A stretch of DNA of 64,000 nt from Marinicella sp. (lineage in GTDB: Bacteria; Pseudomonadota; Gammaproteobacteria; Xanthomonadales; Marinicellaceae): NCBI GenBank assembly GCA_965230295.1, contig OZ246001.1:928001-992000 (forward strand), in the 5' to 3' direction. The stretch's first letter is position 1. Every line of letters begins with the position of its first letter. Shown here piece by piece: positions 8,311 to 64,000 of the stretch. Under the pieces are notes generated by a model. The model saw only the letters and a list, made by a program, of their open reading frames with translations. It ran no database searches and was not told the origin of the DNA. Made by a program: the position numbers and the translations under genes.

Positions 8311-11300
8311 TCACCAGCCGCCTCCGTTGCCGCCGCCTCCGCCACCACCGCCACCACCAGCGCAAGGGTTCGTTTTGGGACATTTGTCGCAACTGTTGTA
8401 CAATTCGATACAACCTTCAAGCTTGCACCCTAATTTCACATCATCTAAGTTATCCAATGTGGCACCGGCATTGCCATAATATCCACTGCTAGAACTAAGA
8501 CCCGCTCCAGCATGGAAAAATGGGACATGGATTTCGCAACCAAAACTGGCTGAAGCACAAGAACTGGGTGGTGGGGGTGGACCTGGAAAAAATCGTTCTT
8601 TGTTGTCAAATCGATTGGTCCCACCTTTACTCCTTTTGTAAGGTCCTATTCCGGCAGACCCTTTGAATTTGGGCCGGTCGTCATCGGCATCGGTGATGTC
8701 TGTTCCAATTCTAAAGGACAGGCAAATTTTTACTTTGACACAAGTCCAGGAAAATTCAAATTTCAATTTGCCACATGTCCTGGCACCCAGCCCCAAACAA
8801 ATACCCCCATCGAATTTAAGCAAACCAGTTGGATCGGTGTATCTTAGTGGCGCATTACTGACGTAGACATACTCATTGGCATCGGCATAAACACCCAATG
8901 GATCACGCTGAATATATCGGCCCAAACCAGGAGCATAATCCCGATTGAAGTTATGGTAGGTAAACGACTCGGGATCTGCATATTGGCCCGGCATCATCAA
9001 TGGATCGGTGTGCCCGTTGACGGCTTGCCAATCATGTGATTCACCAAAAGCAGAGAATTCACGGGCCAGTTGCACCACACCTTGACTGTCGATGATTTTG
9101 TGCGGTGTGCCCAGATGATCATTCAGGTAATAGAAATAACCTTCAGCTGATTTCTTTAAGATCGGTTTGGCCCCTTCTAATTGATGCGGCTCATGTAAAT
9201 AATTAACTGTTGAACCATCGGCAAGACGCTCATGAATCAAACCTTCTTTGCCATAGTGGAAATAGGTGGTTTCATTGTTGGCCAGATCCTTTTTAAAAAT
9301 ACGTCTACCGAACGGGTCGTAATGGTATTCATGGGTAGCTGTTCCGCCACCGTCTTGAATTTGGGTTAAACGCATGGCTTCGTCATAAACGTAGTTATTC
9401 AAAACGCCTAAACCGGCATCAGTGACTTGTGTCATGTTGCCATTGTCATCATAGACATAGGATTGGGTGATGGCATCCACCAGTTGGTTGTTGGCATTGT
9501 ATTGCCAAATGGCATCGTTGGTGGTCAGTGAAGTGGTGCGGTTTCCTACCGCATCATACTGGTACCCTTCGGTTGGTAGGGATGGGTGTGTGGCACTGAT
9601 CAGCTGGTCCAGGTTGTCATATCCAAAAACATGGTTTCCTTGTTGGGTCTCTTTGCTGGTCATGAAACCATAGTCATTGTAGCCATAGACATGCTCCTGA
9701 ATGGGATTGGCTTGGGCGTCAGTGGCCGTGATGCTCATGGTCCGTTGCAGACCATCATAAGTCATCTGTTTCACCACCCCACCAGGCATGGTCACCTGTT
9801 GTGGCTTATTGACCTTAAAATCAGAATAAACGATGTCGCCCTGGTTGGGAATCACCACTTTGGCCAAACGCGCATCATCATAAGAAAATGGGTACTTGAT
9901 GCCATCCACTCCGGTGAAGCTTTTGGTCAAGCCATCTTTGAAATATTCATAGCTGTGGTTGAATGAGTGGCCATGTACGGTCAGAGTTTCACTCAACTTG
10001 TTCAGCTTAAAGTCATAGGTCGCTGTGCCCACCAAAGTGCCGTCTTCATATCGTTCAATAGCTCCACGGTTGTTGAGGGTATAAGTTATGGTATTGACCA
10101 ATTGTTGTTGCCCATCAATGGAGCGAAAGGAGCGGGTTCCGACCTGTCGACTGTCGTCATCGTATAAATATTCAATGCGATTGCCCATGGCATCTTCTTT
10201 GAATGTCACATAATTGTTTTCATCATAAATAAAATGAAACGCTTCATTCATGGGACGAATCACATCTTTCAGATTGTTCGCCAAATCATATTCAAACCGA
10301 TGTCGGTTCAATTTGGCATCATAAAATTCAATCATGTTATCCCGGTCATCATACCGATACTGTTGCTGTAAAACCCCTTCATGATAACGATGGGTCCTTC
10401 TGTTGAGCGCGTCGTATTCAAATGTGATGGTCCGTTCTGCATTGCCGGAAGTTTCAATGATGTTACCTACGGCATCGTATTCGATGTTCATGACATCGAT
10501 TTTGGTCTCACCAGCTTGTTCATAGGTTCGTGTTTCCTGGATGATGCGATTTTGCAGGTCATACCGCAAATCCATACTGTAAGTGGGGAAAACCACCCGG
10601 GTGGGTTGATAAAACGCTCCCGAATTCATCGGTGCATCCACCAATGGTTGATAAGAATATGTGGTGATCAAGCCACTTGCTGTGATCATGGCCGTCATAC
10701 GACCAAAATCATCGTAGGTATAGGTTGTTTCATTACCCTCCTCAGAAATTGCCTTGCTGAGGCTACCTGCCGATGAATACTCGGTGATCAGCTCACCACC
10801 CATTTCATCAGTAACCTTTATTCCACGACCCAATGGATCACTTTCATAAAATCGTTTTGACTGATCTGGATGTTCCACCTCAAGCAAGTGCCCAAGCTTG
10901 TTGTATTTATACTTGGTTTCAAACTGGTTGGGGGTCTGCTTCAAGGTCATGTTGCCGGCATCATCGTACTCAAACGTCCACAGTTTGGTCCTGGCATCTG
11001 TGTATGTTTTGACATTGCCGCGAGCATCATGGGTGAAGAACCGTTCATTCAGTCTGCCATCGGTTGCTTTGTTCATGTTGCCATGGTCATCGTATTCATA
11101 AGTCTTCACTGACTCGGCCGTCTGGGCATCTGCCAAAGATCTGACTTCGGTCACTTGACCATAGGCATCATGAGTCAAGCGATGAATGCGTTCAGCTGGT
11201 TCTCCCACTGCTTCAACCACCTCAAACAAATTGTTGTTGACATAAGAGTAGGTGGTCAAGACACCATTGCGATCACGCATGGTCAGCAAATTGGAATTGG

Positions 11301-51642: not shown

Positions 51643-52650
51643 ATGAATAACAAGATACCCCTGAACATCCAATCATCAAAAACAGCTGGCCCAAAGTCCA
51701 ACGGACCTAAAGTGGCCGGTGCCAAAGAATTGGGCGCCAAGAAAACCGATCGCAGCCGAGCAGGCTTTGACACGGATGCACCCCGTTTACGCAAACCTGA
51801 TTGGATAAGAGTGCGCATTCCAACTGGCAATGCGGTGCAAAAACTAAAAAGCAAATTACGCACCAATTCTTTGGTCACTGTATGTGAAGAAGCCTCATGC
51901 CCAAATATACACGAATGCTTTGGCAAAGGGACCGCCACTTTCATGATCTTGGGCGAAGTGTGTACCCGCCGATGCTCATTCTGCGATGTGGCCCATGGCC
52001 GCCCTTTACCTCCAGACACCAAAGAGGCTGAAAACCTGGCCCAAACCATCGCTGATATGGGCCTCAGTTATGTGGTCATCACTTCTGTTGATCGCGATGA
52101 TTTGAAAGATGGCGGCGCACAGCATTTTGTCGATTGCATTGCCGCGGTTCGTGATAAAAACCCTGACATCCAGATTGAAATCCTGACTCCTGACTTCCGT
52201 GGCAAAGGCCGCATGGACAAAGCCCTGGAAATTTTGGCCCAAAGCCCGCCTGATGTGTTCAACCACAACTTAGAGACGGCATATGCCTTATACAAAACCG
52301 TCAGACCAGGTGCTGATTACCAATGGTCGCTGGATTTATTGAAAAAATTCAAAGCGCAGCACCCTGAGATCCCCACCAAATCAGGTATCATGGTAGGCTT
52401 GGGTGAAACTTATGAACAGGTTCAGGAAACTTTACAACATTTGGCTGATCATGATGTAGAAATGATCACCATTGGACAATACCTGCAACCCACCCAAGGT
52501 CATCACCCTGTGTTGAATTACTGGACCCCGGATGAATTCAAAGCCATCGAAGAATATGGTTATTCCTTGGGCTTCAAACACATTGCCGCAGGACCACTGG
52601 TGCGTTCTTCATATCACGCCGATGTTCAAGCCCACCAAGCCGGAGTCTAA
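51643..52650 (+). CDS. lipA: Lipoyl synthase
   Basis: [30 protein letters not shown]. Confidence 0.98.
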
Positions 52651-52737
52651 TGTGGATTCCAAAGATAAATTGGACTGAACAATGGTAATTTGTACTGTAC
52701 ATCGCTATTTTGTACTGTACAGCGCTATCTTGGACTG
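52651..52737 (+). repeat. Transposon end with four contiguous 20-bp TnsB-type binding sites
   Basis: TG(G/T)ACTG at 52671, 52691, 52711 and 52731. Units TCCAAAGATAAATTGGACTG / AACAATGGTAATTTGTACTG / TACATCGCTATTTTGTACTG / TACAGCGCTATCTTGGACTG. Confidence 0.85.
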
Positions 52738-52749
52738 ATGAGCGCAGAA

Positions 52750-53034
52750 CTACTCAAACTCTCCTACTTTCCCGATTATGGGCGCATATGGAGGGTTGAG
52801 TGGGTATACGACATTCAGTACATCCGGCGTATAAATCCTTTTCCTATTCTGGTCATCGTTCCATTCAATTTGAACAGGTTGAACCTCAAATTTGCTAACA
52901 TTTGACTTAAATTCAAAATATATCAGCACATCCCTTTCAAGTGTAGATTCAAATCCAGCATCACCAATCGATTTAACACTTGGCAGCAACCCTGTTAAGT
53001 TTCTGTAATTTTTTGGTATTTTCCGAACAGACAC
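52750..53034 (-). pseudogene. tnsA: Truncated TnsA endonuclease (N-terminal ~73 aa)
   Basis: MSVRKIPKNYRNLTG...FESTLERD...FEVQPVQI...YTPDVL is the TnsA N-terminal signature. It breaks off before the ExK motif into unrelated sequence. Confidence 0.88.
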
Positions 53035-53343
53035 AAATGCATAACAAATTAATTCCTAACAATATTATACGTTACATATAAATTACAACTTAGTATATAT
53101 TTTTATTGATACAATCCAAAATATCACTGTACAAAAACATGATGTATAAAATATTTTTCTTTATTTGCAAACAGTTAAACCTTTATATTAATATATTTTT
53201 TCAACAACTCTTCTTTTCGAGTCAAGTTGCAAATCGAATTCTGTTGCTGTATGGCGACTTTTCATTACTACATTTATGAGCATTTAAATTGATCAAATTC
53301 CATCATTTAAGTGCGCTTTTAACAAAGGACTTAAGGTGAAATA

Positions 53344-54795
53344 ATGAGTAAACGATTCCTAATTTTAACTTTACTAGTTTCTGCGAACTTCTCTTCTGTT
53401 TATGCAGATGATTTATTCGATTCTATAATCCCCAATAGCGGGACAATATCCCCAAGACCAACGGTTAATTCCTTCAATGATGTCGAAGTAAATTTTGATG
53501 CACTCGCTGAAGCACCCGAAACTTTAGACATCACATTACCAAATTCAGCATTGATTACTGTCACAATGAGTGACTTTCGATACCGTCGTGGTTATCAGTT
53601 TCCTGATGATGAAGATGATCCACCAGGCACACCCATTACTATAATTCCCGGATTCCCAATCGATGACATGAGTTACAAATGGAGTGGTGGTAACGACCAG
53701 TGGGATGTTTTACTTACTGTAACCAGGGGTGTTTTATACGGCATCATCACCAGTAACGATAAACGTTATGGAATTTCCAAAGTCAATGGCACAGACTATG
53801 CATTGGCTGATTACAATCTACAGGCATTCAGACCGCTTGATGGTGCTGCTGGCACACCTATTCCTACTCCAACTAATCGAAGCAGTATTCTTGAAGGGCC
53901 TACAATCGACAATACATCAATCAGTCATTTAAAGTCTTATGATAATTCAGGAAAGTCATTAACTGATGATCTAACCAGAGGTAGTTCCACAAATTTAGAT
54001 GTCCTCATCATTTGGACAGAAGACGCAAGAATTGAAGCAGGGGGAAACCCAGGAGATTTAAATGATACTGCCGATATCGATGCATTAATGGTAACTGCTA
54101 TTGACCATGCAAATGAAGCTTTTACAAACAGTGAAGCAAACACAAGAGCAACAAAGTTTCATACAGCAAAATTAAATGGATTTGTCTACCACGGCTCTAC
54201 TGTGAACCCTGTACCAGATGATGCATTTGCAATAGATTTAGAAAACCTTACAGCTATAACTTCTGTTCAAACTTTAAGAACTCAAGTAGGCGCAGATGTG
54301 GTCACTGCTATCATGGCTCCTAGTGCAACTGTATTTACGCCATGTGGAGTCTCATGGGTTTAGACTTTTCCAACATGCAGTGATTTAAGACCCGATTCAA
54401 ATTGTGATACTGGTGTAGATTTTGAAGATTTCACTTACAACATCACAGTTCAAGAATGCGTTTTGTTTACCGATGCTTATACACATGAATTTGGACATTT
54501 AATGGGTGCAAATCATATTTTCACAGAACTTACGTCAACATGGAGAAATGCTGTAGTAAGTAATGGATACCCAGAAGCATTTGGGTATTCAAACTCTACT
54601 TTCAGGTCAATTATGTCAGTTACCAACGTTACTTCAAGGCGTTTGAATTTCTCAAACCCTCTAGTAACTGTAAATGGCGTAGTAACTGGTGTATCGGGTA
54701 GTGCAGATAATACGTCTACAATTGACTCATTGACTCCTACAATGGCAAACTACAGAACACGACCTGATTTAATTTTCGAAAGTGGATTTGAGTGA
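53344..54795 (+). pseudogene. Secreted reprolysin-like (M12) zinc metallopeptidase interrupted by one in-frame TAG
   Basis: ORFs 53344-54363 and 54463-54795 share a frame and the gap between them is open (CGVSWV*TFPTC). The downstream part has HEFGHLMGANH, RSIMS and DLIFESGFE. Confidence 0.85.
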
Positions 54796-55415
54796 ACGCA
54801 TTGATTAACAATTTCTTAAAGAAATATTTTGTTCTATTAACATTACTATTGATAAGCTCAGTAAATGCAGAAGTTGCTGATCTGAGCTTATCAATGGAGT
54901 TTGATGGGGAAGATTCTGGAATTGTTTACCAACAAAATGGTACTTTCAGAATAGTTGTTACCAATAATGGTCCAGAAGCAGCCGGAACCAATTCAACTTT
55001 ATCAACACCAATAACAGTCTTTAGCGGGTTCGTTGAACTTGCAGCTGATGGCACAGAAATGAACTATGGATTGGACCCCAATGTCACCCAAGAATGTGGA
55101 TTTGGTTTAATAGCAGTAGACCCAAGGCCTGGCGATCCGCCAGGATTTGTTTTTGTATTCAGAAGTCCAGTCATTCAACCTAATTCATCAATTACATGTC
55201 ATGGGATTTACTCAATCAACTTTCCACTAGGAACAAGAACATATCAGTGGAATGTAAATGGCCACATTGATGATACAGACCCTAATTCATCAAACAACAT
55301 ATTTCCAGTAACTTTTGGAGTTGCCCCTGTTCCTGTCCCTACATCTAATCACTTTGGGTTGTTGATATTATTTTTCACATTCTTGGTTTTTGGTATAACT
55401 AAGCTCAAGAGTTAA
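54792..55415 (+). CDS. DUF11-like exported protein with IPTL-CTERM-like anchor
   Basis: Signal peptide, ADLSL, VTNNGP, DTDPNSSNN. C-terminal VPVPTSNHFGLLILFFTFLVFGITKLKS. Confidence 0.75.
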   Translation: MNALINNFLKKYFVLLTLLLISSVNAEVADLSLSMEFDGEDSGIVYQQNGTFRIVVTNNGPEAAGTNSTLSTPITVFSGFVELAADGTEMNYGLDPNVTQECGFGLIAVDPRPGDPPGFVFVFRSPVIQPNSSITCHGIYSINFPLGTRTYQWNVNGHIDDTDPNSSNNIFPVTFGVAPVPVPTSNHFGLLILFFTFLVFGITKLKS

Positions 55416-55418
55416 TAA

Positions 55419-56078
55419 TTGAATTCGATATTTATGGAAGAATATGAAAGAAAGAATCAGATTGAAATAGAAGAGTTCATCAACGGGTATTCGCTATCTG
55501 ATCTATTTAGGTATTGGAAAGGAACCCTGGATGACTTTGGCATCAACTCACAAAACATGTTTACCGACATCAATTTATCGGACCCTTCATTGGTGGGCAG
55601 GTCACCTGCCTATTCATGGTGGTTTAAAAATGAGCTTTCTATTCAAATCAAAAAATTTAGGGACCACATCAAAACTTGGCCATCAACTAGGGGCCCTATA
55701 TATCCAGAGGAATTCAGAAAAGGTGAGTTAGAAACTTTGGGTTATTTATGGATTCTGAGGAATAACAATTTTAAAGTCTTTGCTTTATTATTGTGCTGTT
55801 CATTGTTCCCCAAAGTAAAATCATCTAGAACACATTACCCTAGAGAAGAATGGCCACCATTTTATTGCGTCGATGCACTTTATCAAATGGCTGAAAAAGA
55901 ATGGCGAAATGGACAAGGCCTATTTTCATGGCATTATTCTTGCACAAATGTGATTCCTACTGAATTGTCAGATCGTCATTTTAAAATCGATTCAGTCGTT
56001 GGAATTGTCAAGTTTGCAGCCATTGAGCATGCACAACTTTTATCAAAATATCAGCCTGTTCGTCTTATCTTTGATTAG
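55419..56078 (+). CDS. Hypothetical protein (transposon cargo)
   Basis: 219-aa ORF closely packed between co-oriented genes. Trp-rich, no recognised domain. Confidence 0.65.
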   Translation: MNSIFMEEYERKNQIEIEEFINGYSLSDLFRYWKGTLDDFGINSQNMFTDINLSDPSLVGRSPAYSWWFKNELSIQIKKFRDHIKTWPSTRGPIYPEEFRKGELETLGYLWILRNNNFKVFALLLCCSLFPKVKSSRTHYPREEWPPFYCVDALYQMAEKEWRNGQGLFSWHYSCTNVIPTELSDRHFKIDSVVGIVKFAAIEHAQLLSKYQPVRLIFD

Positions 56079-56108
56079 ACATGAAGGAATTATCATGAGT
56101 AGCATTGA

Positions 56109-56813
56109 ATGACACAAATTCCGGCAGTTTTTCAAGCTAAAGGTTTTTTGATGCTATTATGTGATGCCAGTTTTCAATTACGACAGGCAGTAAAAGAGAA
56201 AGATTCTTATTCAAACAACAGATACGCCAGAGCTTCAATTATCGCATCAGTGCTTTCAATTGAATCCTGTGCTAACTCACTATTAACTAGCTTAGAACTT
56301 CCAAAAAAATTTCTACAGGAATTAGATAAATTACCAGCAATTGGGAAACTTGAAACTTATTTAAGGATTGAAAACAAAAAAAACATTGATAGAGGAAAAA
56401 GTGAAACACAAAAAGTTATAGAGTTAATAAAACTGAGAAATGACTTTGTTCATCCAAAAATCAAAAAAATTGAAAGCACTATTTCTCCACTCACCGAAGA
56501 TGGAGAATTTTTATCACTACCTTTTTCAATGATGCCAGATAAATGGCCTGCATTAAACATTCCAAAACACAGCATGTTTTGGTCTTCAGATACAGCCAAA
56601 ATTGCTGTTCAAGCTTTATTAGAGTTTTATGAGTATCTATTTACTGAGCTGTTAGAAATGAATAATAAAGAAATTGAAATACATTTTTTTGATTCTCTAC
56701 AAATTGGAGATACGGATATTCTGTTTTGCTTTGATGAAGTCAGGGATGAGTTAAACAGTTTGAAAAACTATGGATTTTCAATAGGTTTTATTGAGAACAG
56801 CTTGCCCAACTAA
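56109..56813 (+). CDS. HEPN-like protein (RxxxxH motif)
   Basis: Helical-looking sequence with SIESCAN upstream and LIKLRNDFVHPK. Stops just before the transposon end. Confidence 0.6.
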   Translation: MTQIPAVFQAKGFLMLLCDASFQLRQAVKEKDSYSNNRYARASIIASVLSIESCANSLLTSLELPKKFLQELDKLPAIGKLETYLRIENKKNIDRGKSETQKVIELIKLRNDFVHPKIKKIESTISPLTEDGEFLSLPFSMMPDKWPALNIPKHSMFWSSDTAKIAVQALLEFYEYLFTELLEMNNKEIEIHFFDSLQIGDTDILFCFDEVRDELNSLKNYGFSIGFIENSLPN

Positions 56814-56817
56814 TCCT

Positions 56818-56875
56818 TAGTACAAATTACCACTGTACAAACAGCATCCAGTACAAAATAACTTTGGAATTAACA
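56818..56875 (-). repeat. Transposon end with two TnsB-type sites separated by 11 bp
   Basis: Reverse complement: TGTTAAT-TCCAAAGTTATTTTGTACTG-GATGCTGTTTG-TACAGTGGTAATTTGTACTA. Confidence 0.85.
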
Positions 56876-56880
56876 TCTAA

Positions 56881-56938
56881 TGTCAATTCCAAAGTTAAGT
56901 TGAAGCGGTTGCTGTTTTTGCACAGTTAAATTGTACTG
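56881..56938 (+). mobile_element. End of a second, related Tn7-like element; partner end not found in the window
   Basis: TGTCAAT-TCCAAAGTTAAGTTGAAGCG-GTTGCTGTTTT-TGCACAGTTAAATTGTACTG begins immediately after the TCTAA duplication and has the same two-site/11-bp architecture. Confidence 0.75.
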
Positions 56939-57094
56939 ACAATGTTTTGAGGTATTTAATAGAAATTGAATATCTGTGTTATTTGGCCTTCTGCATCTAT
57001 TCTACAGCTTCTTCTTTTGATTGAATGAATGGAATGATTTAAAGCCAAGAAGCCACAATTTTATTGCTGATCATTTTGAACTCACCAAGGAAAG

Positions 57095-57405
57095 CTGCTG
57101 AGCAGCTTGACCCGCCGAGCCGGTTAGGCAAATCATGCAATCATGGCGGTTTGACGAAGTCAATAAGCCTTGATGTAATGATTGATTAGCCGTGAGCTTT
57201 TGATGCTGCGGCCGCTATCGCTCCTTGCTATCGCGGCAGACCTACATCCATGTAGGCCAATCAGAGGCGCAGAGCGCGAGGAAGCATGTCATGTTCGCCT
57301 CGGCAGCTACCGCATCGATCCCCAGGACGGGGTGAATGCAGAGAATTGTTGGGAACAATTCCTGCCTGCTATCGCTGCATACTTACATCCATGTAAGCAG
57401 TCGCT
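57095..57405. repeat. GC-richer palindrome cluster, MITE/REP-like
   Basis: Imperfect direct repeats TGCTATCGC.GCA.AC.TACATCCATGTA.G at 57226-57256 and 57367-57397, each with the hairpin TACATCCATGTA. Also the hairpin GAATTGTT-ggg-AACAATTC. Confidence 0.55.
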
Positions 57406-60614: not shown

Positions 60615-62657
60615 ATGAGGTATGACTTGAGGCTTGAATCAACATTTATCCAATTACCATGTCTGTTTGATCAATCAAAGTTACAGCAGGATATTTCAGC
60701 ACTTCCCAATGAAGCCTGGCGAAGTCACCCTCAAGGGTTTGCGGGCAATTCAGCGGTTTCCCTGATAGCCCGTCATGGTGATGCCAATGATGACCGCACA
60801 TATGGATCCATGCAAGCAACACAATGGCTGGATCAATTGCCATACATCAAAGCCGTGATGGCTTACTTTAAAACACCATTGGGCCGTTCTCGCTTGATGC
60901 GCATCGAAGGCGATGCCCAAGTTCCCAGCCACACAGACCTTGACTACTACTGGCAAGGACGCATGCGACTTCATGTGCCCATCATCACCAATCCGAGTGT
61001 ACGTTTTGAGTGTGGTGATGACGCTGTACATATGTCGGCAGGTGAAGCCTGGGTGTTTGACACCACCGAATTACACCGTGTTCTCAATGAAGAAGGTGGA
61101 GAACGCATTCACTTGGTTTTTGATACTGTGGGCAGTGCTCATTTATATGATTTGATCTCAAAATTTCCATCTCCAACGATTGAATCACTTGATCAGACAC
61201 CCTTATCCATCGAAAAGACTGATTTGTTGTTCGAATCTCACAACAGGCCTCAGGTCATGAGCCCATATGAGCAGCAAGTCATTATGAATGAATTTTTGGG
61301 TTTATTAACCACCGAACATGACCCCAATGTGGTTGAATCAATAGCCACAGCATTCAAACCCGTCATGCATGACTGGCGAGCTGCGTGGGCTCAGTATGGG
61401 ACCAACCCATCCGGTCACAACACTTTCATTGAATTACAAAAACGTTTGGCTCAGATCGCAACGAATTGTGGAGCAAATAGAACTTTAAGGAATTCTGCGA
61501 TCGAGTTGTGGTTGCAGCATTGGTTGGTTGATCCGGCTGTGGATGTGGATGAAACCAAGAACACATCCAGGGGACACCAAACACCCAAATCAAACCAGGT
61601 CGAGCAGGCACAGATGTCATTTGACAGTCAATATACTGATAGTTTGCCTGGTTTGATTGCGCATCTGAATGGCACTTTGGTAGCCACCACCTACGCCAGT
61701 AATCGGGTGGTCTTGATGCGTTCTGATGGTCATGATCTGAACACCCATTTCAAAGACTATACTGGCCCGATGGGGCTGGCTTATGATGACAATCATATGG
61801 CTTTGGGGGTACAAAATGCCATCTGGATTTTTCGATCACAACCCGACCTTGGCGCCGCACTACAGCCCAATTGCGATGCGGTTTATGTACCCTTCAAACA
61901 GCACATGACCGGAGACATTCGGATTCATGAGCTGGGTTGGTCAGACAATGAACTGTGGCTGGTCAACACCCGATTTTCTTGTTTGGCCACCCTGGATGAG
62001 GATCACAGCTTCAAACCTCGTTGGCACCCTAAGTTTATCAAAGACTTGAGTGCTGAAGACGCTTGTCACCTCAACGGGATGGCCATGCGTGATGGTAAGC
62101 CTGCATGGGTCACTGCCTTGGGCATCAGTGATCAACCTGGTGGTTGGCGAGCGCATAAACTGCAAGGCGGTGTGGTCATAGATGTGGCCAGTGGTGAAGT
62201 GGCCACTGACGGTTTATGCATGCCACATTCACCAAGATGGCATGGCAACAATTTGTGGGTACTTGATTCTGGACGTGGTGAATTGTGTCAAGTCAACCCA
62301 CAAAACGGACAGCGCGAAACAGTTGCTAAATTTCCCGGCTTCACACGAGGTTTGGCGATGATAGATCGCTATGCATTTGTTGGATGTTCTCGAGTGAGAG
62401 AGAAAGCATGGTTTGGCGGTTTACCCATTCTGGATCAAGACAAACCACCTGAGTGCGGCGTGTGGGTTGTGGATTTGGTTACTGGTCAAATCATTGGTTG
62501 GATAGTTTTTGCAAATGGTCTTGATGAAATATTTGATTTGCAATGGTTGCCTGGCCAACGGTGGCCAGACATTCTGGAACCGGATGAACCGACAGCCAGA
62601 AATGGCTTCAGCTTACCTGCCGAAAAAATCAACCATTTTAACCCTGGCAAAACTTAA
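60615..62657 (+). CDS. Asp/Asn beta-hydroxylase-like domain fused to TIGR03032 (DUF4915) domain
   Basis: N-terminal: RSRLM, HTD, RLHVPI, FDTTELHRVLN. C-terminal: TGDIRIHE, VNTRFSCL, SFKPRWHPKFI, EDACHLNGMA, GLCMPHSPRW, PGFTRGL. Confidence 0.88.
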   Translation: MRYDLRLESTFIQLPCLFDQSKLQQDISALPNEAWRSHPQGFAGNSAVSLIARHGDANDDRTYGSMQATQWLDQLPYIKAVMAYFKTPLGRSRLMRIEGDAQVPSHTDLDYYWQGRMRLHVPIITNPSVRFECGDDAVHMSAGEAWVFDTTELHRVLNEEGGERIHLVFDTVGSAHLYDLISKFPSPTIESLDQTPLSIEKTDLLFESHNRPQVMSPYEQQVIMNEFLGLLTTEHDPNVVESIATAFKPVMHDWRAAWAQYGTNPSGHNTFIELQKRLAQIATNCGANRTLRNSAIELWLQHWLVDPAVDVDETKNTSRGHQTPKSNQVEQAQMSFDSQYTDSLPGLIAHLNGTLVATTYASNRVVLMRSDGHDLNTHFKDYTGPMGLAYDDNHMALGVQNAIWIFRSQPDLGAALQPNCDAVYVPFKQHMTGDIRIHELGWSDNELWLVNTRFSCLATLDEDHSFKPRWHPKFIKDLSAEDACHLNGMAMRDGKPAWVTALGISDQPGGWRAHKLQGGVVIDVASGEVATDGLCMPHSPRWHGNNLWVLDSGRGELCQVNPQNGQRETVAKFPGFTRGLAMIDRYAFVGCSRVREKAWFGGLPILDQDKPPECGVWVVDLVTGQIIGWIVFANGLDEIFDLQWLPGQRWPDILEPDEPTARNGFSLPAEKINHFNPGKT

Positions 62658-62767: not shown

Positions 62768-64000
62768 TTATTCGAAACCATTTGCAAAAATGACATCAGA
62801 TAATGTGGTTGAGGTAAAGGTGTCTGAAACCCCACCAATGGTCACTTCGGTATCTACCGGGGTAAGGATGGTAGATGCTGAGGTGTGTTGTGCCCTGACT
62901 TCATCGCCATCGACCACTGTACCTGGAGTGGAAACAAAAGGCCCTCCATTGATTGAGTAACTACCACCAGTGACAGAGATGGCAACCATTGTATTGATTC
63001 CCGTAACTGTGATGGTGTTGGAGGTTTGTAACGAGTCCGGAGACACATCTGTTGTATCAGTGAAACTGAACGCATCAGGTGTGGCATCTTCAAGCAGAGT
63101 CGTGGAAGAAAAGGTATCACTGACACCGCCAATGGTAAGCTCTGTATCCACCGTGGTGTTGAATGATGACGATGAAGTATGCTGTACAGCCACTGTATCA
63201 CCATCGACCACTGTACCTGGAGTCGAGACAAATGGACCACCATTCACCGAATAACTGCCATCAGTCACAGTAATCGCAACAGATGTGTTGATTCCACTGA
63301 CATTGATCGTATTCGAGGTTTGTAATGTATTCAAGGCCACATCGGTCTGGTCTGTGAAACTGAACGCATCAGGTGTGGCATCTTCGAGCAGAGTCGTAGA
63401 AGAAAAGGTATCACTGACGCCGCCAATGGTAAGCTCTGTATCCACCGTGGTGTTGAATGATGACGATGAAGTATGCTGTACAGCCACTGTATCACCATCG
63501 ACCACTGAGCCTGGAGTCGAGACAAATGGACCACCATTCACCGAATAACTGCCATCAGTCACTGTAATCGCAACAGATGTGTTGATTCCACTGACATTGA
63601 TCGTATTCGAGGTTTGTAATGTATTCAAAGCCACATCGGTCTGGTCTGTGAAACTGAACGCATCAGGTGTGGCATCTTCAACTTCCGTAGTCGATGTGAA
63701 TGTGTCATCAACACCCCCAACAGTCACAACTGTGTCTACAGCTGTACTGAAGGCTGCAGATGATGTGTGGTGAGCTCGCACCATATCACCATTGTTCACC
63801 GTTCCTGGCGCCGTCTCCAAGGGTCCGCCATTGATTGAATAGCTACCTCCGATGACAGTGATTGGAGTGGGTGAATTGATGCCAGTGATGTCGACCGGAT
63901 CAGAATCAATGGTCGCACTCAAAGCCACATCAGTTTGATCTGTAAAAGTGAATGCATCAGGTGTGGTATCAATGTTGTTGATTGCTATGTAGTCTTCAAC
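62768..64000 (-). CDS. 3' part of a large surface protein with 98-aa Thr/Ser-rich Ig-like repeats and DVIFANGFE tail
   Basis: The frame stays open to the window edge (VEDYIAINNIDTTPDAFTFTDQTDVAL), so 63928 is not the true start. VEDY may be the end of a GEVED domain. Confidence 0.88.
   Translation of the reverse strand, partial: VEDYIAINNIDTTPDAFTFTDQTDVALSATIDSDPVDITGINSPTPITVIGGSYSINGGPLETAPGTVNNGDMVRAHHTSSAAFSTAVDTVVTVGGVDDTFTSTTEVEDATPDAFSFTDQTDVALNTLQTSNTINVSGINTSVAITVTDGSYSVNGGPFVSTPGSVVDGDTVAVQHTSSSSFNTTVDTELTIGGVSDTFSSTTLLEDATPDAFSFTDQTDVALNTLQTSNTINVSGINTSVAITVTDGSYSVNGGPFVSTPGTVVDGDTVAVQHTSSSSFNTTVDTELTIGGVSDTFSSTTLLEDATPDAFSFTDTTDVSPDSLQTSNTITVTGINTMVAISVTGGSYSINGGPFVSTPGTVVDGDEVRAQHTSASTILTPVDTEVTIGGVSDTFTSTTLSDVIFANGFE
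62795..63970. repeat. Four 294-bp tandem repeats
   Basis: GAAACTGAACGCATCAGGTGTGG at 63062, 63356 and 63650, with a diverged copy near 63944. The middle two units are nearly identical. Confidence 0.9.

Follow-up and report, generated by a model that had tools for sequence, protein, structure and literature searches.

The window analysed here, a stretch of 64,000 nucleotides from the gammaproteobacterium Marinicella sp. (assembly GCA_965230295.1, contig OZ246001.1, positions 928,001 to 992,000 of the forward strand; genome G000), carries an intact gene for lipoyl synthase, lipA, followed directly by transposon debris (Table 1). With a probability of about 0.85, we read this debris as the dead remains of a stack of two or three Tn7-like transposons, members of a family whose attachment site is the 3ʹ end of lipA. 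Comparison with related sequences strongly supports the lipA 3ʹ end as a dedicated landing site for such elements, of which no description was found in the main texts of the literature searched.

Transposon remains behind lipA in Marinicella

The lipA reading frame closes with a TAA at 52648-52650, and the very next base opens a transposon end that begins with TGT. This lipA-side end contains four abutting 20-bp sites of the TnsB type (TTGTACTG/TTGGACTG type) at 52665-84, 52685-04, 52705-24 and 52725-44. An end of the other type, with spaced sites and termed the tnsA-side end, finishes with ACA at 56875. The target-site duplication on the outer flanks, TCTAA, takes in the stop codon and leaves lipA intact, and a second related end starts at the same target point (56881). 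The TGT and ACA ends, the duplication, the repeated 20-bp sites and the second related end had been described in an earlier note made from the letters of the DNA alone, and each is visible in the sequence. The same note placed conserved lipA codons roughly 30-60 bp upstream of the insertion point, which is confirmed: within the last 60 bp of lipA, conserved C-terminal codons occupy 52591-52623, that is, 28-60 bp ahead of the insertion point, and the first ten of them (52591-52620) lie 31-60 bp ahead. The guanine-plus-cytosine (GC) content is 45-50% in and ahead of lipA and drops to 26-41% over 52800-57000, so that a low-GC patch of 4-8 kb in the Marinicella genome is explained as transposon debris.

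Table 1. Coordinates of lipA and of the transposon-derived features behind it (window positions; ORF, open reading frame; aa, amino acids; E, expectation value)
Feature	Position	Strand	Basis
lipA (lipoyl synthase, 335 aa), intact	51643..52650	+	ORF; Pfam Radical_SAM E 1.3e-24, LIAS_N E 2.6e-12
Target-site duplication, copy 1, TCTAA including the lipA stop	52646..52650		Sequence inspection and repeat search
lipA-side end of element A1, terminal TGTGGATTCCAAAG, from the base after the lipA stop	52651..52744	+	Sequence; aligned with the like end of 7 related loci
TnsE-like gene, first ~29 codons (MSAELLKLSYFPDYGRIWRVEWVYD...), reading inward from the lipA-side end, remainder deleted	52738..52826	+	Homology to relatives ends at 52826-52833
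Remnant of tnsA covering residues 1 to ~72 of ~217, up to and including the YTPD motif	52822..53034	-	NCBIfam TnsA_like E 1.2e-8
Decayed tnsA-side end of A1	53116..53194	-	Inner two sites 53116-53153 clear; terminus near 53194 inferred
Possible decayed lipA-side end of A2, like the 56881 end (tentative)	53195..53275	+	Score 20, reached by 14/500 shuffles; colinear alignment
Cargo: reprolysin-like zinc metalloprotease gene, signal-peptide-like start	53344..54795	+	Second part matches Pfam Reprolysin_4 (E 4e-5)
Cargo: three ORFs of 207, 219 and 234 aa without a family	54792..56813	+	Pfam weak DUF11 match only; PADLOC none
tnsA-side-type end, spaced sites, terminal ...CTTTGGAATTAACA	56819..56875	-	Aligned with like ends of G125 and G059
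Target-site duplication, copy 2, TCTAA	56876..56880		Sequence inspection and repeat search
Solo end of lipA-side type from an older, additional element B: terminus TGTCAATTCCAAAG; 14 terminal nt and one site at 56926-56944	56881..56944	+	Sequence; alignment

Two transposition genes have left fragments just inside the first end. Complete homologues of the truncated TnsE-like gene stand at the equivalent place in genomes G050 and G175, where they encode 578 and 585 aa. The tnsA remnant, which the earlier note had also recognised, forms part of a 94-aa ORF on the minus strand (53034-52750). This ORF matches the NCBIfam family TnsA_like over residues 8-74, stays under the cut-off with Pfam PF08722 (E 8.7e-4), and is 52% identical to residues 3-88 of the intact TnsA of a relative (tblastn). 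A reading of the whole ORF as TnsA was rejected: residues ~73-94 are the antisense of the TnsE-like gene start, and apparent tnsA remnants in G050 and G125 were discarded on the same ground. The head-on junction of ~29 TnsE-like codons and ~72 tnsA codons is the signature of one internal deletion.

The rest of the tract is mainly cargo, 3.6 kb in all. The metalloprotease gene is broken by one in-frame TAG (54361-54363); the flanking ORFs share a frame, and the second part holds an HEFGH motif. No TnsB, TnsC/TniB or TniQ of the lipA family is encoded in the 4.0-Mb genome, so the array is immobile by itself. A scan of the same genome for the 14-nt end motif with at most 1 mismatch returned 26 places, of which only 3, all in the window, combine an exact match with downstream TTGTACTG-type repeats; it found no partner for the 56881 end. 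To the right of the foreign DNA, synteny with relatives resumes only at a 680-aa ORF at 60615, and only in G125.

The earlier note treated 52651-56875 as one element, which it probably is not. Two sites at 53116-53153 align with the inner sites of the outer tnsA-side end (56822-56860) at a local score of 34; shuffled sequences score 16.1 +/- 2.5, and none of 500 reach 34. With a 25-nt insertion, the alignment continues to a decayed terminus near 53194. Because this decayed tnsA-side end sits where intact relatives end, the first element, A1 (52651 to ~53194), is read as ending there. A1 would be an autonomous copy that suffered an internal deletion from TnsE-like codon ~29 to tnsA codon ~72. 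Behind it would stand a cargo-only remnant, A2 (53195-56875), whose lipA-side end is nearly gone, and then the solo end B (from 56881). We infer that this array arose by stacking, an arrangement also seen in G125, where the tnsA-side end of a newer mini-element is fused to an older element's truncated lipA-side end and the beginning of that element's TnsE-like gene.

A single composite, non-autonomous element that transposed as a unit is a possible but less probable account of 52651-56875. In its favour speak the outer ends, which are preserved best and belong to opposite types, the identical 5 bp on both flanks and the weakness of the proposed inner lipA-side end. Against it, a decayed tnsA-side end occupies the very place where an intact element would finish. 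Identical duplications are predicted by stacking as well. Because stacking regenerates the same 5 bp at every junction, the TCTAA pair cannot decide between two stacked remnants and a composite.

Related elements at the lipA 3ʹ end

To the remnants in the window can be added a family of elements in other genomes. A scan of one genome per species with an alignment of the TnsE-like protein gave 45 loci. At 37 of these, the immediate upstream neighbour is lipA, encoded on the same strand and ending ~90-250 bp before the TnsE-like gene. Hosts include Marinicella, Methylobacter, Methylomonas, Thalassotalea, Pseudoalteromonas, Alishewanella, Rheinheimera and Cellvibrio, along with Xanthomonas and other Lysobacteraceae, Chromobacterium, Aquitalea, Jeongeupia, Rhodocyclus and Glaciimonas. 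The earlier note had proposed looking behind lipA elsewhere for like ends and for tnsABC-tniQ; in 14 of the 45 loci, the opposite strand encodes TniQ, a TniB-type TnsC, TnsB and TnsA as a group, 4-10 kb further along.

Full elements share one layout. Next to lipA comes the packed end, then the TnsE-like gene and the cargo, then tniQ, tnsC, tnsB and tnsA on the other strand, and last the spaced end. The proteins measure ~338 aa (TniQ), ~298 aa (TniB-type TnsC), ~625 aa (TnsB, 625-659) and ~217 aa (TnsA). In intact relatives, Pfam recognises TniQ (E 7e-32), TniB (E 2e-73), TnsA_N (PF08722, E 7e-19) and TnsA_C (PF08721, E 8.5e-8), and in TnsB it recognises Mu-transpos_C (E 5e-8) and, in one protein, rve (E 2e-5). 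The cargo between the TnsE-like gene and tniQ is variable and a few kilobases long. It consists mostly of anti-phage and restriction-modification genes, among them PD-Lambda-5, type II restriction-modification and CARF genes. Apart from the TnsE-like gene and tniQ-tnsCBA, no conserved gene was found in 8 elements whose ORFs were listed; the gene after tniQ is variable cargo.

The position of insertion is narrowly confined. When 37 sequences (36 related loci and the window) are anchored on the VRSSYHA codons of lipA, the lipA-side terminus (TGWSAATTCC type) falls at index 61-69, or 26-34 bp past the final base of the Ala codon, in 36 of them and at index 110 in one. Within this 9-bp band, single termini are found at 61, 64 and 69, while 62 holds 10, 65 holds 12, 66 holds 5, 67 holds 2 and 68 holds 4. 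First and second codon positions of lipA are conserved up to ~14-22 bp short of the terminus. The sites of the lipA-side end abut one another and those of the tnsA-side end are spaced; the packed-site end thus faces the target gene as in Tn7, though the tns operon lies at the opposite end. Both termini were checked in 13 elements, in 4 of which the fetched sequence was too short. A tnsA-side terminus is recognisable in 7 of the 13, 136-143 bp from the start of tnsA, and all seven elements show a perfect 5-bp duplication (GTGTA, TAAAC, GTTTA, GTCGC, TCGCT, GATTA and GTAAA); in L081 and L082, no matching terminus was found within 700 bp. The homing to the lipA 3ʹ end that the earlier note had proposed from one locus is thus strongly supported by its relatives.

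In many hosts, insertion took place ahead of the native stop, and LipA then receives a tail and a stop codon encoded by the element (e.g., ...VVNSNDKLD* and ...VTYNAK*). Since the transposon end is translated as the LipA tail, the element gives a housekeeping enzyme a different end while sparing the enzyme itself. Such tails are 6-17 residues long (e.g., in L059, L066, L072, L081 and L087).

Insertion at lipA appears to have occurred repeatedly. Between Chromobacterium vaccinii and C. subtsugae, the loci share 95.8% identity across 14.4 kb and encode almost identical TnsE-like proteins; their elements stand at index 65 and 68, 3 bp apart, each matching its own duplication (GTGTA and TAAAC). 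In the window's own host family, the lipA 3ʹ end was searched in 44 genomes, of which 43 matched, and 30 loci were read. A family-type end follows lipA in 7 of these, possible scars in 2 (G068 and G203), and nothing in 21, which supplies the empty sites that the earlier note had suggested looking for in relatives. Within the genus Marinicella, the end starts at -1 (G050), 0 (G000 and G248) or +1 (G125) relative to the end of the lipA stop codon, and like ends stand at the lipA stop in two other genera (G175 and, in degenerate form, G021).

That there is no targeting, the lipA flank being merely permissive or marking one old insertion inherited vertically, is very improbable. An insertion is common to close kin, and the tree of TnsE-like proteins, a quick tree with support from the Shimodaira-Hasegawa-like approximate likelihood ratio test (SH-aLRT) only, follows host taxonomy in part. 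However, junction offsets vary within genera, each with its own coherent duplication, and filled and empty sites are mixed inside one genus. Moreover, the hosts come from several orders, and one clade of the tree mixes Methylococcaceae with Chromobacteriaceae: the Methylobacter elements nest within a clade of Chromobacteriaceae and Chitinibacteraceae. Sampling across the class is also at odds with the absence of targeting. In an even sample of 400 genomes, 4 match the TnsE-like protein at E <= 1e-10, in 6 places. Five of these are distant TnsE-like genes of other families; the only family-type match, a 117-residue remnant in G543, again abuts lipA. A search across the order for the pattern of the ends returned 15 places, 7 of which are, by their flanks, chance matches inside genes.

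Several observations weigh against a dedicated lipA site or the stack proposed for the window. The 45 loci were found through one element protein, include close kin and are not independent. The insertion point spreads over 9 bp between lineages, which is wider than in Tn7, and in the Marinicella genome G059 the end stands 44 bp downstream of the lipA stop. An end of the lipA-side type occupies a place other than lipA on contig 71 of G050 (L020, 10804); the end at L069 abuts an insertion sequence-like fragment; and in a Glaciimonas metagenome-assembled genome (MAG; L102, ~9900-10000), inner lipA-side end repeats and a remnant directly follow glmS. The family TniQ is short, at 338 aa versus 508 aa for TnsD of Tn7, and a second selector is not evident despite this. 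Within the window, the lipA-side end assigned to A2 is statistically weak (14/500 shuffles).

Some of these loci have further features of their own. The L020 end is well preserved, with four packed sites, a hairpin-like sequence outside, and hemF and an aldo-keto reductase gene inside; it may reflect a rearrangement or insertion by another pathway. The G059 assembly has two contigs of interest, 9 and 11 (L027 and L024). On one, lipA is followed by the 44 bp and an end; on the other, a tnsA-side-type end is followed by GTTTAA and then by a sequence that differs from those 44 bp at 3 positions. The two look like strain variants with insertions at +44 and at the stop. A sister MAG of L102, L101, carries the same remnant at lipA, which suggests recombination between two Tn7-type landing sites.

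In total, 8 of the 45 loci have no lipA upstream. L069 and L102 are two of these, and 3 more (L079, L083 and L084) have less than 130 bp of upstream sequence. Three others (L096, L099 and L103) are distant homologues with 22-25% identity. L096 shows the gene order of Tn7 at another site. In L099 and L103, from Desulfitobacterium and Peptococcaceae MAGs, the TnsE-like genes (22-24% identity) come immediately inward of a TGTCAATTACATC... end, which in turn adjoins a truncated comM (ChlI and the N-terminal part of Mg_chelatase); these two are Tn6022-like elements in Firmicutes.

Candidate readers of the lipA site

Sequence searches place the TnsE-like protein in no family: at 575-585 aa, it has no match in Pfam, NCBIfam or the PDB sequences, and its profile likewise has none in PDB or Pfam. 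Some source annotations of homologues read "TnsE C-terminal domain-containing." An AlphaFold2 model from a 15-row alignment has a predicted local distance difference test (pLDDT) score of 76, and its only clear Foldseek matches are the TnsE C-terminal domain structures 9d5l_A and 5d17, the former with E 8.9e-4, probability 1.0 and a template modelling (TM) score of 0.63 on the target. By its predicted fold, then, the 575-aa protein is TnsE-like. A model of the family TniQ (pLDDT 84.5) aligns over its full length with TniQ of a type I-B CRISPR-associated transposon (CAST; 8fcu_P), with TnsD (8v32_J) and with I-F TniQ. At E <= 1e-10, 306 TniQ clusters were counted.

By analogy with TnsABC+D of Tn7, TniQ would read the conserved lipA coding DNA and recruit TnsC. 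TnsA and TnsB would then cut and paste the element in a single orientation, 26-34 bp past the SSYHA codons, and duplicate 5 bp. Where the host LipA has a longer tail, the element end would supply a few new codons and a new stop, and repeated homing would stack elements one behind the other. TniQ alone is favoured as the likely reader of lipA because no further conserved gene is found in the 8 elements listed.

The earlier note had left a choice between a TnsD- or TniQ-directed pathway and a guide-directed one. A family TniQ of 338 aa with a clear Pfam match agrees with the first; the second is not supported, because the elements contain no cas gene and, in 10 of them, no spacer-like match to lipA. 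Some Tn7-like elements do reach fixed chromosomal sites with a dedicated guide, as the main text of a 2024 Annual Review describes (PMC11406308), but homing by a guide RNA as in CASTs is hardly credible here. Pfam and PADLOC detect no cas family among the scanned element ORFs, and when the last 115 nt of lipA are compared with the interior of 10 complete elements, no exact match exceeds 13 nt, the one of that length being the end repeat. Rfam likewise has no family at gathering score in the window between 51000 and 61000.

A different division of labour, in which the TnsE-like protein reads lipA and the short TniQ is a mere adaptor to TnsC, is unlikely. The adaptor role would resemble the part that TniQ plays beside TnsF in Tn6022 or beside Cascade in CASTs. 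According to the main text of Faure et al. (2023, PMC10293859), a short TniQ marks elements that depend on a second selector, and in this light the 338-aa TniQ signals a partner; among the 8 elements, neither a protein of TnsD length nor a TnsF-like gene is conserved. Conservation otherwise extends only to the TnsE-like gene, whose place is always on the lipA side. Plasmids can be counted in favour of the TnsE-like reader as well. Among 72,556 plasmids (PLSDB), there is no close full-length TniQ or TnsE-like gene of the family. TnsE-like matches there number 7 and are weak or partial, the best covering residues 4-186 at 36% identity in two Xanthomonas oryzae plasmids, and TniQ matches are confined to the N-terminal domain, of the Tn5053 kind. 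However, PLSDB is poor in the relevant marine and soil hosts. The C-terminal fold is also that of TnsE, which in Tn7 targets replication structures rather than sequences, and TnsE homologues are described as almost universal in elements that target glmS or comM, where other proteins read the site (main text of PMC11406308). The presence of a TnsE-like protein is therefore expected anyway. A predicted complex of TniQ and the TnsE-like protein scored 0.00 in two runs whose controls were not folded, and speaks neither for nor against binding.

A wider version of this idea, that the 338-aa TniQ is unable to read DNA alone and that the TnsE-like protein, or TniQ jointly with it, reads lipA, has an equally low probability. 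If it were true, a protein with the TnsE fold would home to a specific sequence in the chromosome, which TnsE is not known to do, and would be a new, compact protein selector whose site nearly all aerobic bacteria possess.

Comparison with known elements and other features of the genome

The lipA family, with TniQ as its favoured reader, combines structural features that characterise Tn7-like transposons: TnsA, TnsB, TnsC and TniQ, defined termini with a duplication, and site specificity. Of these four proteins, the window itself encodes only the TnsA fragment. Like Tn7, the family pairs a heteromeric TnsA and TnsB transposase with an AAA+ TnsC and a selector of the TniQ family. Its TGT...ACA ends contain several TnsB sites, packed at one end, beside the target gene, and spaced at the other; insertion occurs in a single orientation with a 5-bp duplication, elements stack, and conserved coding DNA lies ~25-60 bp from the insertion point. 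Unlike Tn7, which targets glmS and inserts 23 bp past its stop, the family targets lipA and inserts at or inside the last codons. It also differs in its TniQ of 338 aa in place of a 508-aa TnsD, in its short TnsC of the TniB type, and in a tns operon placed at the spaced-site end with the TnsE-like gene alone on the other strand at the target side.

A closer parallel in layout is Tn6022/AbaR. The main text of Faure et al. (2023, PMC10293859) describes branches with TniQ and TnsE, as well as Tn6022 itself with a short TniQ and with tnsE at the far end on the opposite strand. The match to the TnsE C-terminal fold is a further similarity, and distant TnsE-like relatives in the two Firmicutes loci adjoin truncated comM. 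However, no conserved TnsF-like (Orf3) gene stands between tniQ and the cargo in the 8 elements, as judged without a TnsF profile, and lipA stays functional or acquires a new tail, in contrast to comM, which is interrupted. The lipA family is thus a Tn7-like family of Tn6022-like layout without TnsF and without cas genes. Tn6230 (yhiN), Tn7017 (parE) and the I-F3 CASTs (guaC, yciA, ffs and rsmJ) resemble it in using fixed chromosomal sites (main text of PMC11406308). Their targets are different, and the CASTs use Cascade and guides, of which the lipA family shows no sign.

Other features of the genome and window lie apart from the lipA elements. A second four-gene operon of Tn7-like appearance is found on contig 1 of G000 at 3742756-3747582 (locus L003, 5756-10582, minus strand). 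Its four products are a TnsA-like protein of 220 aa, whose PF08722 match (E 3e-5) narrowly misses the cut-off, a protein of 622 aa, an AAA_22 ATPase of 315 aa and a protein of 453 aa. Pfam assigns the second and the last of these to no family, and FRG-domain and DUF4238 genes adjoin the operon. It was considered as kin of the tnsA remnant and rejected as unrelated, there being no BLASTP alignment between the two. Inside the window, a GC-rich repeat with the palindrome CCTACATCCATGTAGG is present at 57221-57257 and 57362-57398. It has 62 matches in the genome at up to 5 mismatches, often paired ~140 or 320 bp apart, and is a dispersed element similar to repetitive extragenic palindromes (REPs) or miniature inverted-repeat transposable elements (MITEs). 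At 62768-64000, on the minus strand, a large ORF with near-identical repeats of ~100 residues (...DATPDAFSFTDQTDVALNTLQTSNTINVSGINTSVAITVTDGSYSVNGGPFVSTPG...) runs off the window and probably encodes a repetitive surface protein.

The earlier note had also held that lipA is absent from the known attachment sites, and the literature searched agrees with it as far as main texts go. Table 1 of the 2024 Annual Review (PMC11406308) gives glmS, yhiN, comM, plasmid res sites, parE and tRNA genes, its main text adds guaC, yciA, ffs and rsmJ, and lipA does not occur there. The terms lipA, lipoyl and lipoate occur in neither the main text of Faure et al. (2023, PMC10293859) nor that of Benler et al. (2021, PMC8649781), whose supplementary tables of flanking genes may list lipA. 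A literature search linking lipA with a Tn7-type element found none, and the co-occurrences in PMC4781885 and PMC5658596 are irrelevant.

Because their landing sites are fixed, Tn7-type elements do not endanger the host and can serve as insertion tools. With lipA, a highly conserved, near-universal gene would join the handful of sites read by proteins (glmS, comM, yhiN, parE and tRNA genes in Table 1 of PMC11406308). The features that set this family apart are insertion at or inside the last codons, with a tail and stop supplied by the element, and a tns operon at the far end. Its short TniQ, with no evident partner selector, makes what a minimal TniQ can read directly testable. Furthermore, with PD-Lambda-5, restriction-modification and CARF genes as cargo, the lipA 3ʹ flank is marked as a place to look for defence islands.

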